This document shows, piece by piece, positions 16,928 through 25,659 of a stretch of 42,441 nt of DNA (the stretch's first letter is position 1; each line of letters starts with the position of its first letter). The DNA comes from Escherichia coli (lineage in GTDB: Bacteria > Pseudomonadota > Gammaproteobacteria > Enterobacterales > Enterobacteriaceae): assembly GCF_003334385.1 (NCBI RefSeq), contig NZ_QOWN01000037.1; one strand, written 5' to 3'. Under the pieces are notes generated by a model that did not search any database, had not been told where the DNA came from, and saw only the letters and a program-made list of their open reading frames with translations. The position numbers and the translations under genes are program-made.

Positions 16928-18211
16928 GTGAACACATTTTCAGTTTCCCGTCTGGCGCTGGCATTGGCTTTTGGCGTGACGCTGACCGCCTGTAGCTCAA
17001 CCCCGCCCGATCAACGTCCTTCTGATCAAACCGCGCCTGGTACCTCTTCTCGCCCGATTCTGTCGGCAAAAGAAGCGCAGAATTTCGATGCTCAACACTA
17101 TTTTGCATCCCTGACACCAGGTGCTGCAGCGTGGAATCCTTCCCCGATTACCCTGCCTGCGCAACCTGACTTTGTTGTCGGCCCGGCGGGCACTCAAGGT
17201 GTAACGCATACCACGATTCAGGCGGCGGTAGATGCGGCAATTATCAAGCGTACCAACAAGCGCCAGTATATTGCCGTGATGCCTGGTGAGTATCAGGGAA
17301 CGGTATATGTCCCTGCCGCTCCGGGTGGAATTACTCTGTACGGTACAGGTGAAAAACCGATTGATGTGAAGATTGGGCTTTCCCTTGATGGTGGCATGAG
17401 CCCTGCCGACTGGCGTCACGACGTCAACCCGCGCGGCAAATATATGCCAGGTAAACCAGCGTGGTATATGTACGATAGCTGCCAGAGCAAACGCAGCGAC
17501 AGTATCGGTGTTCTCTGCTCTGCGGTCTTCTGGTCACAAAACAATGGCCTGCAACTGCAAAATCTGACCATCGAAAACACGCTGGGCGATAGCGTAGATG
17601 CAGGTAACCATCCGGCGGTAGCACTGCGTACTGATGGTGACCAGGTACAGATTAACAACGTTAACATTCTCGGTCGTCAGAACACCTTCTTTGTCACCAA
17701 CAGCGGTGTGCAGAACCGTCTGGAAACGAATCGTCAGCCGCGTACGCTGGTGACCAACAGCTACATTGAAGGGGATGTGGATATCGTTTCTGGTCGCGGC
17801 GCAGTGGTGTTCGATAACACCGAATTCCGCGTGGTGAACTCACGTACTCAGCAAGAAGCGTATGTGTTTGCACCGGCTACGCTGTCCAACATTTACTACG
17901 GTTTCCTCGCCGTAAACAGCCGTTTCAATGCTTTCGGTGATGGTGTGGCGCAACTGGGCCGCTCGCTGGATGTTGATGCCAATACCAACGGTCAGGTGGT
18001 GATCCGTGATAGCGCCATCAACGAAGGTTTTAACACGGCTAAACCGTGGGCCGATGCGGTGATCTCTAATCGTCCGTTTGCGGGTAATACCGGCAGCGTA
18101 GATGATAACGACGAAATACAGCGCAATCTGAATGACACTAACTACAACCGCATGTGGGAATACAATAACCGCGGCGTGGGTAGTAAAGTGGTTGCAGAGG
18201 CGAAGAAGTAA
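16928..18211 (+). CDS. ybhC: Pectinesterase-like outer-membrane lipoprotein YbhC
   Basis: 427 aa, GTG start, lipobox LTAC; matches K-12 YbhC as recalled. Confidence 0.9.
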   Translation: MNTFSVSRLALALAFGVTLTACSSTPPDQRPSDQTAPGTSSRPILSAKEAQNFDAQHYFASLTPGAAAWNPSPITLPAQPDFVVGPAGTQGVTHTTIQAAVDAAIIKRTNKRQYIAVMPGEYQGTVYVPAAPGGITLYGTGEKPIDVKIGLSLDGGMSPADWRHDVNPRGKYMPGKPAWYMYDSCQSKRSDSIGVLCSAVFWSQNNGLQLQNLTIENTLGDSVDAGNHPAVALRTDGDQVQINNVNILGRQNTFFVTNSGVQNRLETNRQPRTLVTNSYIEGDVDIVSGRGAVVFDNTEFRVVNSRTQQEAYVFAPATLSNIYYGFLAVNSRFNAFGDGVAQLGRSLDVDANTNGQVVIRDSAINEGFNTAKPWADAVISNRPFAGNTGSVDDNDEIQRNLNDTNYNRMWEYNNRGVGSKVVAEAKK

Positions 18212-18227
18212 GAGCAATTAACTATTT

Positions 18228-18430
<203 letters not shown>

Positions 18431-18444
18431 TCACATGGCGCTTT

Positions 18445-20706
18445 TTACATCTGACGGTTTTTATTGAAGTTAATCAAACTACCCGCCTTGATAATCTCGC
18501 GCTCTTCAGCAGTCAGACTTTCCATATAGAGCGTAATTTCCGTTACCGGCGCATCTTCATGGATCACATAACCTTTAAACGTCGTACCCGGATTATCCAG
18601 CGCCGCTTTAATGCCAGGGATGTAAATGTAATCCCCCACTTCAAAGGTTGGTACTTCCGCCATTTGCAGCGGTAACATCCCCCAGTTGATGACGTTAGAA
18701 CGATAGCGTTTAGTCGCGTACTCCTCGGCAATATTCGCCAGACCGCCAATCACACGCTGGCAGCTCGCCGCCTGTTCACGCGCAGAACCATCGCCTGGTT
18801 TCACCGCATAGACCATGCTGCCAATTTCAGTTTGCAGCGGATCAATATGCTCCTGACCAGCAATCTGCTTAATGCGCGCAAACACCTCTGTCAGCTCGCT
18901 GACATTCCCCGCCAGACGCTGATTTTCCAGCTCAGCAGTCGCTTTACTTCTGCTAACATAACCGGGATCGCGGCGAGACAGGGTAAACTCCGCCAGACCA
19001 ATCGGATTTGAACGATAAGAAGAGGTTTCACCGGAAGGAATCAGTTCGTCGGTGGTGGTCACTTCGTCGAGGATCTTCGAGCACACTTTCAGGACGATAT
19101 TGTCAGTCAGCGCACCCAATTCCGGCCAGTCTTTAATGTTCGGCCCGTAAATCAGCGGTTGCTGAGTTGCCCCTTTCACAAAGCCCTGATAAACACGGTT
19201 TTTATACGGCGTTACATCGAAGGCGTACTCCGGCACGTTGTCCCAGCAATCAAGTTCGCTGGCAGAGGTTAAATAGCCACCGTTTGCCGCAGTCGCAGCG
19301 ATAGAACGAGCGTCCATCAACGCCACCGCTGACATCTGCCCATTAGCTGGCTTAGAGCCTTCGCGGTTCGGGAAGTTACGCGTGGTGTGGCGAATACTCA
19401 AACCGTTGTTGATTGGCGTATCGCCCGCGCCAAAGCATGGGCCGCAGAACGCGGTTCTGATGATTGCGCCTGCGCCAATCAAATCTGCTACCACACCTTT
19501 TTTGGCGAGATCCATAAACACCGGCTGCGATGACGGGTAAACTGCCAGCGAGAAGGTGTCATTGCCACAGGATTGACCGCGCAGTGCATTCGCCGCCGCG
19601 ATGACGTTTTCGTAGTTACCGCCAGAACAGCCCGCGATAATCCCCTGCTGCACTTTCAGGCGACCATTTTCCACTTTATCCAGCAGCGAGAGTTTGGCTT
19701 TACCGTGCGCCACGCGTTCGGACTCAATTTCAATCTCACGCAGAATGTCGGTCAGGTTCTGGTTCAGTGTGTCGATTTCATACACGTTGCTCGGGTGGAA
19801 CGGCAGCGCAATCATTGGTTTGATGGCGCTTAAATCAACGCTGATGCAGCCATCGTAGTACGCCATCGGTTGAGGGTTAAGCTGGCAGTAATCCTGGCCG
19901 CGACCGTGCAGCGCCAGCCAGTTATGGACTTCTTCATCGGTTTGCCAGACAGAACTTAAACAGGTCGTTTCAGTGGTCATCACGTCAACGCTGTTACGGA
20001 AATCGGTAGAGAGCGCGCTAACGCCCGGTCCAACGAACTCCATGACTTTGTTTTTGACGTAACCGTTTTTGAACACCGCGCCAATGATAGCCAGCGCCAC
20101 ATCCTGTGGCCCCACATACGGCGCAGGTTTTCCGGTCAGATGCACCGCAACCACGCCCGGATAGTCGATATCCCAGGTGTCATTAAGCAGCTGTTTTACC
20201 AACTCACCGCCGCCCTCACCGACTGCCATTGTCCCTAATGCACCGTAACGGGTGTGGCTGTCTGACCCGAGGATCATTTTGCCGCCGCCTGCCATCATCT
20301 CACGCATATATTGATGGATGACCGCAATATGCGGAGGCACAAAAATACCGCCATAACGCTGGGCCGCCGATAAACCAAAAACATGGTCATCACCGTTAAT
20401 AGTGCCGCCGACGGCGCAGAGTGAGTTATGGCAGTTGGTCAGCACATACGGCAGCGGGAAACGTTCCATACCGGACGCTTTAGCGGTCTGTACAATACCA
20501 ACAAAGGTAATATCGTGAGAGGCTAATGAATCAAACTTAATTTTAAGTTTATCCATATTTCCGGACGTATTATGCGAAGAGAGAATAGACCAGGCAATAG
20601 TGCCTTTTTTGGCTTCTTCTTTTTTAATTTCGCCGGTGAAATGTTCTTCGGCAATTATTTCGTTATTACTGGCGAGAAACACGCCTTTTTCAGATAACTT
20701 GATCAT
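18445..20706 (-). CDS. ybhJ: Aconitase-family putative hydratase YbhJ
   Basis: 753 aa from [18 protein letters not shown]; the track ORF has 8 extra upstream codons. Confidence 0.85.
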
Positions 20707-20888
20707 CAAATGCTCCAGATATCTGCGCACCGTGAAGTGCGCAGAAAGATAATAAATGGATATACTCTAAATAATTCGAGTTGCAGGAAGGCGACAAGCG
20801 AGTGAATCCCCAGGAGCTTACATAAGTAAGTGACTGGGGTGAGCGAACGCAGACGCAGCACATGCAACTTGAAGTATGACGAGAATAT

Positions 20889-22322
20889 TTACAGCATGTT
20901 CCAGCCGATCAGCATATTCCACCACCACACGCCGAGGGTGATATGCACCAGGAAGGTTAATATCGTCAGTACCGCACCGACCAACCACCAGGATTTAATA
21001 TCGTTATAACCCACGCCAAAGATGACCGGACCTGCCGCGCCGCCATAGTGAGTAACCATGCCGCCATAGGAGTTGGAGAACAACAGTGCCAGCGCGGTTA
21101 ACATTAACGGTGCGCCGGAGACGTTCGCCAGCATGGCAAATACCGGTAACATAGCAACGATATAGGCACTACCGGAAGCGAAGAAATAACGCACGATAAT
21201 GCTGAGGAAAATAATAACGAAGAAAGCAACGTTACCGTGACCATCAAATGCCAGGTTATTTTTAAAGACTTCAGCTAACCATTCGAAGAATTTAACTTTC
21301 GATAATAAGGAGCTTAAGCCGATAATACCGCCGTACCAGATTAAGGTATTCCAGCCGCCTTTATTTTTAACCACGTCTTCCCAGGTAACGATACCCAGCA
21401 GCAGCATGGTTGCCATAACAACGATTGCCACGGTGGATTCATCAACCCCCAGAGACTTACTGAAAATCCAGCCCAGCAGCGCCAGCACAAAGACACCGAG
21501 CAGCATTTTTTCGCGGATTTTCATCGGTCCTAGTTCGGCAAGGCCCGCTTTAGCGATGGTTTTGTTATCCACCTTCTTAATTTCTGGTGGATACATGGTG
21601 TAAATCACCAGCGGGGTGACCAGCAGCATAATGATGCCCGGCAATCCGGCTGCCAGCGCCCATCCACCCCAGCTAATTTGCAGGTGCAGAATGTCGTTGA
21701 TCATTTTCAGCGCCAGAATGTTCCCCGCCATTGCGGTAAAGAACATATAGCTGGTGGTTTTGGTGACCATGTAAATGGACATCATCAGGTAATGTCCGAC
21801 ACGACGCGGACTTTTTTCCGGTTCGGACCCCAAAGCCACCGCCACGCTGTTGATGATCGGTAACACAATGCCGCCCGCACGCGCGGTGTTAGACGGTGTT
21901 GCCGGAGCCAGTACCAGATCGAGGAATACCGTAACGTAACCCAGACCCAGCGTGGTGTTACCGATTTTACCAATCAGCAGATAGGCAATACGTTTACCTA
22001 AACCGGTGGTCACAAATGCGGCGCTTAAGGTAAACGCCGAGAACACCAGCCAGGTGGTACCTGAAGAGTAACCGCTTAATACGGCGGTGGTTTTAAACGC
22101 ACCGTCGGATAAGTTACCGACCACCACCATTGAGGCAGCAACGGCAATTAACAGTACGACAGGTTCCGGGAAAGGCTTGATAACCAGCCCCACAATGGCC
22201 GCCAGGTAAATACCAAAAAGCACCCACGCCAGTTCGCTTAATCCTGCCGGAGCTGGCATAAAACCAATAATACATGGGATCGCTAATATCAGAATTAGCT
22301 TCCATAACGATTTCTTATTCAT
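20889..22322 (-). CDS. ybhI: DASS-family anion:sodium symporter YbhI
   Basis: 477-aa polytopic membrane protein. Confidence 0.85.
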   Translation of the reverse strand: MNKKSLWKLILILAIPCIIGFMPAPAGLSELAWVLFGIYLAAIVGLVIKPFPEPVVLLIAVAASMVVVGNLSDGAFKTTAVLSGYSSGTTWLVFSAFTLSAAFVTTGLGKRIAYLLIGKIGNTTLGLGYVTVFLDLVLAPATPSNTARAGGIVLPIINSVAVALGSEPEKSPRRVGHYLMMSIYMVTKTTSYMFFTAMAGNILALKMINDILHLQISWGGWALAAGLPGIIMLLVTPLVIYTMYPPEIKKVDNKTIAKAGLAELGPMKIREKMLLGVFVLALLGWIFSKSLGVDESTVAIVVMATMLLLGIVTWEDVVKNKGGWNTLIWYGGIIGLSSLLSKVKFFEWLAEVFKNNLAFDGHGNVAFFVIIFLSIIVRYFFASGSAYIVAMLPVFAMLANVSGAPLMLTALALLFSNSYGGMVTHYGGAAGPVIFGVGYNDIKSWWLVGAVLTILTFLVHITLGVWWWNMLIGWNML

Positions 22323-22397
22323 TTAAAATCCTGTTCTTTCTGTATGACTCATACAGAAGTCCTTTATTGATTGTCCTTATCCTGACAACGAATTTTT

Positions 22398-23450
22398 TCA
22401 GGGAAGATAAACTTCACCGGAAAATATTTTTCTGGTCGTCCGAATAACAGATGCGCGTAACGTCGTGGCATCCTGACCTTCATTACTTAAATGAACGTCG
22501 AGCGCACCACTGGGGTGTTCAATATTGATATTGCCGTATCCTACAGAAGGGACGATTTGTCGGGTGACGGTGCCTTCCAATGCACAACTACTGGAAATAG
22601 CAATAGCACCGGTTATCGCCAGCGCGCGATGGCAAGAATGCGGCATAAAATAACGCACATTAATTGCCCCGCCTTTCTGCGCTGGAGAAATAAGCACAGG
22701 TTTAGGGATAACCATATTACTGACATCACCTAAGCCCATTGCTTTACCCGCTTGTAGACGGATAGATTCAATGCGGGCTAATAATGCTTTGTCGGCATCC
22801 AGTTCCGCCGGTAATTCATAACCTGTTTTTCCCAGATATTCAGCCGGAATAATGACGACTGGCATCGCCATATCGATACAGGTCACCGGGACATCGTCAA
22901 AATAATCAATCTGATTATCAGTCGGGAAAACTTTTCCGGTTTTGGTTCCAGCGGCATTCAGGAAAGTGAGCGCAACCGGTGCGGCAGTACCCGGTACGCC
23001 GTCAATTCTGGCGCTACCCTCGTACTCGACAACACCATTTGGCGTTTGCACATCAGCTTCGATGAACGTACCCGTATTGACGTTGCGGATACGTACGCGA
23101 GTAACTGGCGAAGTCGCTGCAATCAAACCATTTTCAATGGCGAATGCCCCAACACCAGACAGCATATTGCCGCAGTTAGGCGTGGTATCGACACGTTGCT
23201 CATGAACGATTACCTGCGCAAACAGATAATCGACATCAGCACGCGGATCGCTGGAACGGCTAATAATGGCGACTTTACTGGTCAGTGGATTACCGCCGCC
23301 AATACCGTCAATTTCCAGATCGTTACCGGAACCCATAATTGCCATCAATATTTTATCGCGCTGCGTTTGATCTTCGGGTAAATGTTCCGCTAACAGGAAC
23401 GCGCCCCTCGAGGTTCCACCTCGCATCATCACGCAGGGTATTTTTTTCAT
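22398..23450 (-). CDS. ybhH: PrpF-family putative isomerase YbhH
   Basis: 350 aa. Confidence 0.85.
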   Translation of the reverse strand: MKKIPCVMMRGGTSRGAFLLAEHLPEDQTQRDKILMAIMGSGNDLEIDGIGGGNPLTSKVAIISRSSDPRADVDYLFAQVIVHEQRVDTTPNCGNMLSGVGAFAIENGLIAATSPVTRVRIRNVNTGTFIEADVQTPNGVVEYEGSARIDGVPGTAAPVALTFLNAAGTKTGKVFPTDNQIDYFDDVPVTCIDMAMPVVIIPAEYLGKTGYELPAELDADKALLARIESIRLQAGKAMGLGDVSNMVIPKPVLISPAQKGGAINVRYFMPHSCHRALAITGAIAISSSCALEGTVTRQIVPSVGYGNINIEHPSGALDVHLSNEGQDATTLRASVIRTTRKIFSGEVYLP

Positions 23451-23633
23451 AATAATGCCCTCAATTTAAAAACATAACTTATTGCGATATGGTTACATTA
23501 AGGGCAAAGCATCTCTAATGACTTTAGCTCAACGATTAATAACATTTTTTCATTAATTTAAGTTGGCTAAATGCAGTTAAAATTTTTAACGGCCAGCCAC
23601 CCAAAATCGTCGCTTCCATTTTCCGGAGTAATA

Positions 23634-24587
23634 ATGAAGCATGAATTATCAAGTATGAAGGCATTTGTCATACTGGCAGAGTCCAGTTCGTTTAACAATG
23701 CCGCTAAATTACTCAATATTACGCAACCTGCATTAACGCGAAGAATAAAAAAGATGGAGGAAGATTTACATATTCAACTATTTGAGCGTACAACTCGCAA
23801 GGTTACGTTAACAAAAGCAGGAAAAAGGTTGCTCCCGGAGGCGCGGGAATTAATAAAGAAATTCGATGAAACGCTTTTTAATATTCGTGATATGAATGCT
23901 TATCATCGTGGTATGGTGACGTTAGCGTGTATTCCGACCGCAGTATTTTATTTTTTACCGCTGGCAATCGGTAAATTTAATGAGCTGTATCCCAATATTA
24001 AAGTGCGGATTCTGGAACAAGGCACGAATAATTGCATGGAATCGGTGCTGTGTAACGAATCAGACTTTGGCATAAACATGAACAACGTCACAAATTCATC
24101 CATTGATTTTACCCCACTGGTCAACGAGCCGTTCGTGCTGGCCTGTCGGCGTGACCATCCATTGGCCAAAAAGCAGCTTGTAGAATGGCAGGAGTTAGTG
24201 GGTTACAAAATGATTGGCGTACGCTCCTCCAGCGGCAACCGACTGTTGATAGAACAACAGCTGGCCGACAAGCCCTGGAAGCTGGACTGGTTTTACGAAG
24301 TGCGTCATCTTTCGACGTCATTAGGACTGGTGGAGGCGGGACTGGGGATTTCGGCGCTTCCTGGCCTGGCAATGCCTCATGCGCCCTATTCTTCGATTAT
24401 TGGTATCCCATTGGTGGAACCCGTTATACGTCGAACATTGGGAATAATTCGCCGTAAAGATGCCGTACTTTCTCCAGCAGCAGAACGCTTTTTTGCCTTG
24501 CTGATTAATTTATGGACTGACGATAAAGACAATTTGTGGACCAATATCGTCGAACGCCAGAGACACGCGTTACAGGAGATAGGTTAA
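23634..24587 (+). CDS. ybhD: LysR-type transcriptional regulator YbhD
   Basis: 317 aa from MKHELSSMKAFVILAESSSFNNAAKLLNITQPALTRRIKKME (LysR HTH); divergent from ybhH. Confidence 0.85.
   Translation: MKHELSSMKAFVILAESSSFNNAAKLLNITQPALTRRIKKMEEDLHIQLFERTTRKVTLTKAGKRLLPEARELIKKFDETLFNIRDMNAYHRGMVTLACIPTAVFYFLPLAIGKFNELYPNIKVRILEQGTNNCMESVLCNESDFGINMNNVTNSSIDFTPLVNEPFVLACRRDHPLAKKQLVEWQELVGYKMIGVRSSSGNRLLIEQQLADKPWKLDWFYEVRHLSTSLGLVEAGLGISALPGLAMPHAPYSSIIGIPLVEPVIRRTLGIIRRKDAVLSPAAERFFALLINLWTDDKDNLWTNIVERQRHALQEIG

Positions 24588-24627: not shown

Positions 24628-25659
<1,032 letters not shown>

Follow-up and report, generated by a model that had tools for sequence, protein, structure and literature searches.

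The 42,441-nucleotide stretch of Escherichia coli DNA analysed here (contig NZ_QOWN01000037.1 of assembly GCF_003334385.1; hereafter the window) carries the four-gene module ybhJ-ybhI-ybhH-ybhD at 18445-24587, which we predict, with a probability of about 0.5, to encode a YbhD-controlled route from trans-aconitate via cis-aconitate to citrate or isocitrate. The broader proposition, that an unsaturated tricarboxylate is imported, isomerised and then hydrated by a genuine aconitase-type enzyme, is likely. In the proposed route, YbhI, a DASS-family carrier as are CitT and TtdT, would bring trans-aconitate into the cell, possibly in exchange for succinate or another C4-dicarboxylate; YbhH, with its PrpF fold and the residues Lys59 and Cys93, would convert trans-aconitate to cis-aconitate by a 1,3-proton transfer; and the iron-sulfur aconitase-type protein YbhJ would hydrate cis-aconitate to citrate or isocitrate. 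Citrate could then be passed to citrate lyase anaerobically and isocitrate to the tricarboxylic acid (TCA) cycle, and YbhD would repress the operon until it binds an effector, presumably the acid or one of its products. All of these steps are drawn from sequence and comparative context; gene content, gene order, intactness, conservation and YbhD-dependent repression are directly supported. Trans-aconitate is abundant in grasses and hence in the guts of herbivores.

A sequence-only reading of the window had placed a LysR-regulated organic-acid utilisation module at 20889-24587, an interval that covers ybhI, ybhH and ybhD and leaves out ybhJ, although that gene was named. Its account of a LysR gene divergent from a PrpF-like isomerase, a DASS transporter and an aconitase-family hydratase is borne out by family scans and by the 183-bp spacer between ybhH and ybhD. 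The gene set was also rightly described as intact: ybhJ, ybhI, ybhH and ybhD are all open, full-length open reading frames (ORFs), and the DNA between 18000 and 25000 is 100% identical to that of E. coli C and WG5, in which all four genes are annotated. A role in organic-acid utilisation is supported by the gene families and by the same four-part architecture in other genera at other chromosomal positions. The substrate had been described as not established, in agreement with the literature searched, which gives no assignment beyond a tentative "L-malate utilization related" label. The candidate acids that had been put forward (cis-aconitate, itaconate and related compounds) lay in the right direction, and the comparative evidence narrows them toward trans-aconitate. 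Two published sources had escaped mention, namely a study of YbhD (PMC9068703) and the crystal structure of YbhH (6OTV).

YbhI is a full-length DASS carrier (TC 2.A.47), in which the Pfam domain Na_sulph_symp (PF00939) spans residues 4-474 (E = 7.6e-195) and NCBIfam TIGR00785 is matched at 554 bits against a cutoff of 199. Its DASS relatives CitT (citrate) and TtdT (tartrate/succinate) take up their substrates and are succinate antiporters used anaerobically.

YbhJ matches NCBIfam PRK11413, a "hydratase" of the aconitase family, over its full length at 1540 bits (cutoff 641), and its homologues are recorded as having the aconitase catalytic domain (PF00330) and swivel domain (PF00694) in one chain. 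It aligns to pig mitochondrial aconitase in three segments, together with the three cluster cysteines and the catalytic residues. All 74 family members keep the [4Fe-4S] ligands C360, C421 and C424, together with S641, D149, S150, H151, E246, R443, R448, R643 and H131, and 73 of them keep H93; YbhJ has equivalents of the mitochondrial reference residues Ser642, His101, Asp165/His167, Glu262 and Arg447/452/644. Among the same 74 members, one position only (680, Phe to Leu) splits the enteric from the non-enteric proteins. YbhJ scores below the equivalog cutoffs for aconitate hydratases (PRK07229, 343 bits against 612; TIGR01342, 289 bits against 719) and forms a separate subfamily.

A profile search of representative proteins returned few full-length relatives of YbhJ. 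A scan of one genome per species gave 597 confirmed loci, the best 80 of which were analysed, and the orthologues in these best 80 are 61-72% identical to E. coli YbhJ over their full length. Apart from E. albertii and Citrobacter, their hosts are obligate gut or rumen anaerobes, including Lachnospiraceae, Enterocloster, Collinsella, Megasphaera, Acidaminococcus, Synergistales and Ellagibacter. The identity between E. coli and the Firmicutes, Actinobacteria (Collinsella) and Synergistetes nearly matches that between E. coli and Klebsiella (75%), and this cross-phylum similarity points to either strong constraint or cross-phylum transfer among gut bacteria.

For the gene neighbourhoods of these loci, ORFs were called, neighbours were grouped into clusters and the clusters were named by NCBIfam, with counts obtained by tblastn. 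Among the 47 non-Collinsella loci, 20 encode, no more than 5 kb from the YbhJ gene, citrate synthase (11), an isocitrate/isopropylmalate-type dehydrogenase (13) or citrate lyase (6), and contiguous YbhJ-citrate synthase-dehydrogenase runs are found at loci L014, L025, L027, L029, L075, L078 and L080. The 33 Collinsella-like loci were uninformative, with heat-shock gene neighbours only. Because the orthologues adjoin citrate synthase, isocitrate-type dehydrogenase or citrate lyase, the YbhJ family probably includes true aconitases, and on the simplest reading of neighbour context and conserved active site, every member, YbhJ of E. coli among them, would catalyse the aconitase reaction. On one metagenome contig (L009, 199-10202), three genes of the aconitase family (two of them YbhJ-like, the third of PRK07229 type) are found with LysR, isocitrate-type dehydrogenase and PrpF genes, a set that could encode a more elaborate tricarboxylate pathway.

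The complete set of LysR regulator, PrpF-type isomerase, MatC/CitMHS-type transporter and YbhJ is found together in four Firmicute loci, from Oribacterium sp. KHPX15 (L052), Acidaminococcus fermentans (L053) and uncultured Firmicutes (L084 and L086). These clusters have the same four functional parts as that of E. coli, and their aconitase-type protein is orthologous to YbhJ at 61-67% identity; by contrast, their PrpF proteins are only 37-40% identical to YbhH and belong to a different branch. The modules of Oribacterium and L086 run on into citrate lyase genes, suggesting a flow toward citrate, and A. fermentans is a documented trans-aconitate fermenter. As the same four parts occur in two phyla with a non-homologous transporter, their co-occurrence is a good sign that the set forms a functional unit. 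In Klebsiella aerogenes, the module is located between rihC and the citrate fermentation genes citAB-oadGAB-citS-citC (about 2 kb off, with two genes between) and carries an extra CitMHS transporter; its nearness to the citrate fermentation genes supports the trans-aconitate route. Expression data give weak hints that would fit a plant or gut setting, in that ybhJ was up-regulated 18-fold in co-culture with the green alga Chlamydomonas and was expressed in colonic fluid (PMC10972114, PMC12114223).

The pairing of such an isomerase with such a hydratase could also serve a C5 unsaturated dicarboxylate or a methyl-branched analogue (itaconate, citraconate, mesaconate, 3-methylitaconate or 2-methylaconitate), with YbhH making the cis-alkene and YbhJ hydrating it, which we regard as unlikely. 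In its favour, dicarboxylates are the usual cargo of DASS carriers, YbhH gives a good alignment (231 bits) with 3-methylitaconate isomerase 3G7K, and some sources label YbhJ homologues as "2,3-dimethylmalate dehydratase large subunit". A PrpF-type isomerase is partnered with an aconitase-type hydratase in the Mii/Dmd system. The same partnership is found in the 2-methylcitrate cycle (PMC5690661). However, it is genes for citrate synthase, isocitrate-type dehydrogenase and citrate lyase that accompany the YbhJ orthologues, and propionate, methylcitrate and dimethylmalate lyase genes are absent from the recurring neighbour families, unclustered neighbours having been left unannotated. YbhH and YbhJ both fall below the PrpF and AcnD cutoffs (TIGR02334, 187 bits against 440.6; TIGR02333, 63 bits against 1419.9), and the E. 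coli cluster is flanked by no lyase or CoA-transferase gene.

YbhH, a member of the PrpF superfamily, is 100% identical to the protein of PDB entry 6OTV, "putative isomerase YbhH". When it is aligned with LigU, K59 and C93 of YbhH correspond to the residues changed in the K66M and C100S crystal forms, a Lys/Cys pair that is common to the whole superfamily and does not settle the substrate of YbhH. RefSeq/PGAP names the protein "4-oxalomesaconate tautomerase", which would make it a LigU/GalD-type isomerase of gallate or protocatechuate ring-cleavage products, with YbhJ replacing the LigJ/GalB hydratase. On the one hand, YbhH passes the NF033377 cutoff, is 44% identical to crystallised LigU and retains the catalytic Lys and Cys, and 4-oxalomesaconate is chemically the oxalo-analogue of aconitate. 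On the other hand, no dioxygenase, LigI, LigJ/GalB or LigK/GalC gene was found near the cluster in E. coli, Citrobacter, Edwardsiella or Klebsiella, and the hydration product would be a dead end without an aldolase. Genuine lig/gal surroundings are seen for homologues from Ralstonia, Agrobacterium and Croceicoccus (43-46% identical to YbhH), whose neighbours are gallate dioxygenase or LigAB, an amidohydrolase hydratase and LigK aldolase. In a neighbour-joining tree of 15 PrpF sequences (200 bootstraps), the proteins with lig/gal context and crystallised LigU form one clade in 189/200 bootstraps, and YbhH joins this LigU/GalD clade in 0/200. We therefore consider a 4-oxalomesaconate substrate highly unlikely.

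The closest non-enteric relatives of YbhH (57-58% identity) are instead encoded on Rhizobium plasmids (L091 7992-11724 and L092 7983-11720), also under the name "4-oxalomesaconate tautomerase", in clusters where a LysR gene diverges from an isomerase-ABC importer operon with no downstream enzymes and no lig/gal genes. Without a downstream enzyme, an isomerase and an importer would make sense only for a product that is itself a central metabolite, and cis-aconitate fits. The name is probably over-propagated for the sub-clade of YbhH and the Rhizobium proteins. A further homologue, from Pseudosulfitobacter (48% identical to YbhH), is encoded next to a tripartite tricarboxylate transporter; tcuAB follows about 3.8 kb downstream.

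The trans-aconitate route could also be thought of as running in reverse, from citrate to cis-aconitate (YbhJ), then to trans-aconitate (YbhH) and export (YbhI), so that the module would make the acid as TbrA/TbrB of Bacillus thuringiensis do. The equilibrium of aconitate isomerases lies on the side of trans-aconitate, and TbrAB produces this acid (PMC11495376); a PrpF homologue on the B. thuringiensis plasmid pBMB293, 41% identical to YbhH, has a DMT transporter as its partner, an arrangement resembling that of the TbrAB trans-aconitate operon in the same paper (PMC11495376). A dedicated aconitase would, moreover, be easier to justify for making the acid than for assimilating it. Production is nevertheless highly improbable, given that two of the four Firmicute modules lead into citrate lyase, which consumes citrate, that A. 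fermentans consumes trans-aconitate, that the bacterial DASS carriers CitT and TtdT take up their substrates, and that an adjoining LysR repressor is typical of inducible catabolism.

YbhD gave many LysR-family NCBIfam matches, none of them over an equivalog cutoff, and its gene diverges from the isomerase gene ybhH, as the LysR gene does in TarRAB. Control of the cluster by this regulator, as proposed in the sequence-only reading, is supported by the YbhD study: ybhH was strongly up-regulated by RNA-seq in a ybhD deletion, indicating that YbhD is a repressor, and ybhH and ybhI are listed as YbhD binding-site targets in its summary table, with Nac control cited from EcoCyc (PMC9068703). The spacer between the two genes contains a perfect 6-N11-6 dyad of the LysR T-N11-A type, 84 bp upstream of ybhH, which is a candidate YbhD recognition site. 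This dyad is found 78-84 bp upstream of ybhH, in the same place, in four genomes, being identical in E. albertii and having one mismatch each in Citrobacter and Edwardsiella. Across five genera the left half-site stays unchanged amid variable DNA; the control region of K. aerogenes aligns poorly and supports the candidate box in part only. Within the 75-bp ybhH-ybhI spacer there is a palindrome with a 10-bp stem (TTTCTGTATGACTCATACAGAAG, 22337-22359) that might act in attenuation or processing of the transcript; the published RNA-seq text reports strong de-repression of ybhH only.

The same study, the sole functional paper on the cluster, links it to the utilisation of L-malate, a C4-dicarboxylate, because growth of the ybhD deletion in M9 glycerol was altered only in the presence of L-malate, and the "L-malate utilization related" label was given tentatively (PMC9068703). 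YbhI, in addition, is 35.7% identical to the spinach 2-oxoglutarate/malate translocator (TCDB 2.A.47.3.1; PMC9068703 supplement). We give this explanation a very slim chance: neither a PrpF-type isomerase nor an aconitase-type hydratase is required to metabolise malate, the phenotype comes from a regulator mutant with 238 differentially expressed genes (PMC9068703), and an antiporter could simply be using malate or succinate as its counter-substrate.

Of 5426 complete E. coli genomes, 5316 (98%) have 80% or more of the cluster at a single site with 97-100% nucleotide identity, and the cluster is thus near-universal in the species and part of its core genome. Independent insertion sequences interrupt it in some isolates (genomes H51, H53 and H57; IS1 in ybhH, IS1 in ybhI and IS3 in ybhJ), so that it is dispensable in some lineages. 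Among enterics, the cluster moves as a block, occupying the pgl/ybhC site in Escherichia and Citrobacter and other sites in Edwardsiella and K. aerogenes. The cluster proteins of Edwardsiella tarda are 84-87% identical to those of E. coli, and those of Klebsiella 64-78%; the closer resemblance of Edwardsiella suggests horizontal transfer of its cluster, which is located about 9 kb from a phage integrase gene. In E. tarda (L002 8483-9915), ybhI is frameshifted into ORFs of 230 and 260 amino acids (aa), and ybhD, ybhH and ybhJ are intact. That the cluster is a cryptic remnant without current function in E. coli, as its lack of a known phenotype, its silence in laboratory media, the E. tarda frameshift and the insertions might suggest, is very improbable in view of the four intact ORFs in the window, the conservation across complete genomes, the retention of every catalytic residue and the fact that several genera keep the cluster together at different chromosomal locations.

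Several points weigh against the trans-aconitate route. YbhJ departs from canonical aconitase at four positions (Asp100 to Cys92, Gln72 to His64, Asn258 to Val and Asn446 to Thr442), and the Cys92, His64 and Thr442 replacements are found throughout the 74-member family. The segment that would hold the equivalent of Arg580, the arginine contacting citrate's third carboxylate, is skipped by the HMMER alignments to PDB sequences, including one made with the C-terminal 224 residues; the nearly invariant Arg565 in "SSYRSNP" is a candidate by eye only. With AcnA and AcnB already present in E. coli, a requirement for a third aconitase has to be assumed in addition. Blank et al. in 2002 reportedly found that inactivation of ybhJ left the residual aconitase activity of an acnAB mutant unchanged, an outcome that fits a repressed gene and is not positive evidence. 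As for the isomerase, YbhH exceeds the cutoff of the NCBIfam equivalog NF033377 for 4-oxalomesaconate tautomerase (515.2 bits against 440), its grouping with the Rhizobium proteins has a support of only 68% (136/200 bootstraps) in a small tree, and it is only 37-41% identical to the PrpF-type proteins of Firmicutes and Bacillus. The transporter of the Firmicute clusters is non-homologous to YbhI. E. coli is not known to grow on trans-aconitate, and its Ybh proteins have no known enzyme activity, transport or growth phenotype with this acid. The one phenotype in print relates to L-malate (PMC9068703).

The locus itself is an ordinary, already annotated LysR-controlled catabolic cluster; what is new is the specific prediction of substrate and pathway, together with the proposal that YbhJ-type enzymes are probably the aconitases of many gut anaerobes. 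A wider view, to which we give somewhat less than even odds, would regard the YbhJ-type proteins as an unrecognised clade of true aconitases, serving as the TCA-branch or citrate-fermentation aconitase in many gut Firmicutes. E. coli would then possess a third, normally repressed aconitase that forms, with YbhH and YbhI, a gut-specific system for trans-aconitate fermentation or salvage, possibly with succinate antiport and feeding citrate lyase. Four core-genome genes of the best-studied bacterium have no assigned substrate, and the hypothesis makes this question directly and cheaply testable. If it is true, E. coli would gain a third aconitase, four long-standing y-genes would acquire functions, the over-propagated name "4-oxalomesaconate tautomerase" would be corrected and the aconitase of many gut and rumen anaerobes would be identified; E. 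coli would also be tied to trans-aconitate, a major grass acid relevant to ruminant nutrition. If it is false, the cluster stays an ordinary LysR-regulated catabolic operon with no substrate assigned.

The features of the region are listed in Table 1. The longest ORF of ybhJ reaches 20730, and that of ybhD begins at 23571, 63 nt upstream of the RefSeq start at 23634, which would add 21 residues. The ybhI-ybhJ spacer is filled by an ERIC/IRU element, within which both ERIC primer sequences, as we take them to read, are matched exactly; as a large RNA hairpin, the element could affect the co-expression of ybhJ with ybhHI. This spacer measures 182 bp in E. coli, 185 bp in E. albertii and 71 bp in Citrobacter, which at that length would have no ERIC element here, and in Klebsiella it contains a gene. 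The many extra BLAST places per genome are attributable to the REP/BIME repeats downstream of ybhJ. A scan of the cluster for consensus promoters and terminators gave no decisive signal, the promoter-like sites being fewer than those of shuffled sequence.

Table 1. Genes and sequence elements of the ybhD-ybhHIJ region, in window coordinates
Feature	Position	Strand	Description
ybhC	16928-18211	+	RefSeq annotation of matching stretch
REP/BIME tandem repeats	18225-18440	.	between ybhC and ybhJ, downstream of ybhJ
naRNA4 (CssrE), Rfam RF02564	18280-18350	-	60.7 bits against a gathering score of 59.5, just above threshold
ybhJ	18445-20706	-	753 aa from RefSeq start; aconitase-family Fe-S hydratase, proposed genuine aconitase
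ERIC/IRU repeat core	20802-20845	.	whole element roughly 20750-20880, in the ybhI-ybhJ spacer
ybhI	20889-22322	-	477 aa; DASS-family anion transporter, proposed importer or antiporter for the acid
ybhH	22398-23450	-	350 aa; PrpF-superfamily 1,3-allylic or cis-trans isomerase, proposed aconitate isomerase
ybhH/ybhD divergent control region	23451-23633	.	183-bp AT-rich spacer
Candidate YbhD site, ATTAAT-N11-ATTAAT	23535-23557	.	LysR-type T-N11-A dyad; putative function
ybhD	23634-24587	+	317 aa from RefSeq start; LysR-type regulator, repressor of ybhH
pgl	24628-25623	-	RefSeq annotation of matching stretch

Among known systems, a PrpF-fold isomerase is combined with an aconitase-superfamily hydratase in Mii-DmdAB of nicotinate fermentation in Eubacterium barkeri. 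The same combination is found in AcnD-PrpF of the 2-methylcitrate cycle in Shewanella (PMC5690661). In both pairs, the alkene geometry is thereby fitted to the hydratase. Unlike the components of these systems, YbhH and YbhJ are far under the PrpF and AcnD cutoffs, and no propionate or nicotinate pathway genes are nearby. LigU/GalD (PDB 6P3H/J/K) resembles YbhH in fold, in sequence (44% identity), in the catalytic Lys/Cys and in the 1,3-allylic proton shift on a tricarboxylate, whereas YbhH has none of the LigI/J/K or GalA/B/C genes around it and is placed outside the clade verified by gene context. In E. coli itself, a DASS carrier works alongside the Fe-S hydro-lyase TtdAB in ttdR-ttdABT, the system for L-tartrate fermentation, and citT, which encodes another such carrier, accompanies the citrate lyase genes. 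TtdR is a LysR-type regulator of tartrate metabolism, according to the title of ref. 48 in PMC11495376. The enzymes of these two systems differ from those of the ybh cluster, and antiport by YbhI is proposed by analogy only.

The nearest validated counterpart in trans-aconitic acid assimilation is TarR-TarA-TarB of Bacillus velezensis FZB42, in which a LysR gene diverges from genes for a PrpF-type aconitate isomerase and an importer (PMC11495376). Differences are found in the transporter, which in the ybh operon is of the DASS (Na_sulph_symp) type and not a TarB-like MFS protein, in the aconitase-type ybhJ that E. coli adds, and in the regulator, TarR being an activator and YbhD behaving as a repressor of ybhH. 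Aconitate isomerase activity has been shown for TarA, and YbhH is likened to it from the fold and Lys59/Cys93 only. The enteric TarA homologues in Table S6 of the TarRAB paper are very probably YbhH, the only PrpF-family protein known to us in these genomes. The table gives homologues from Shigella, E. fergusonii and Edwardsiella at about 40% identity (PMC11495376). Both systems have a LysR gene divergent from an operon that opens with a PrpF-superfamily isomerase and includes an importer, and the predicted logic would be the same in each, namely import of the acid followed by isomerisation to a TCA cycle intermediate.

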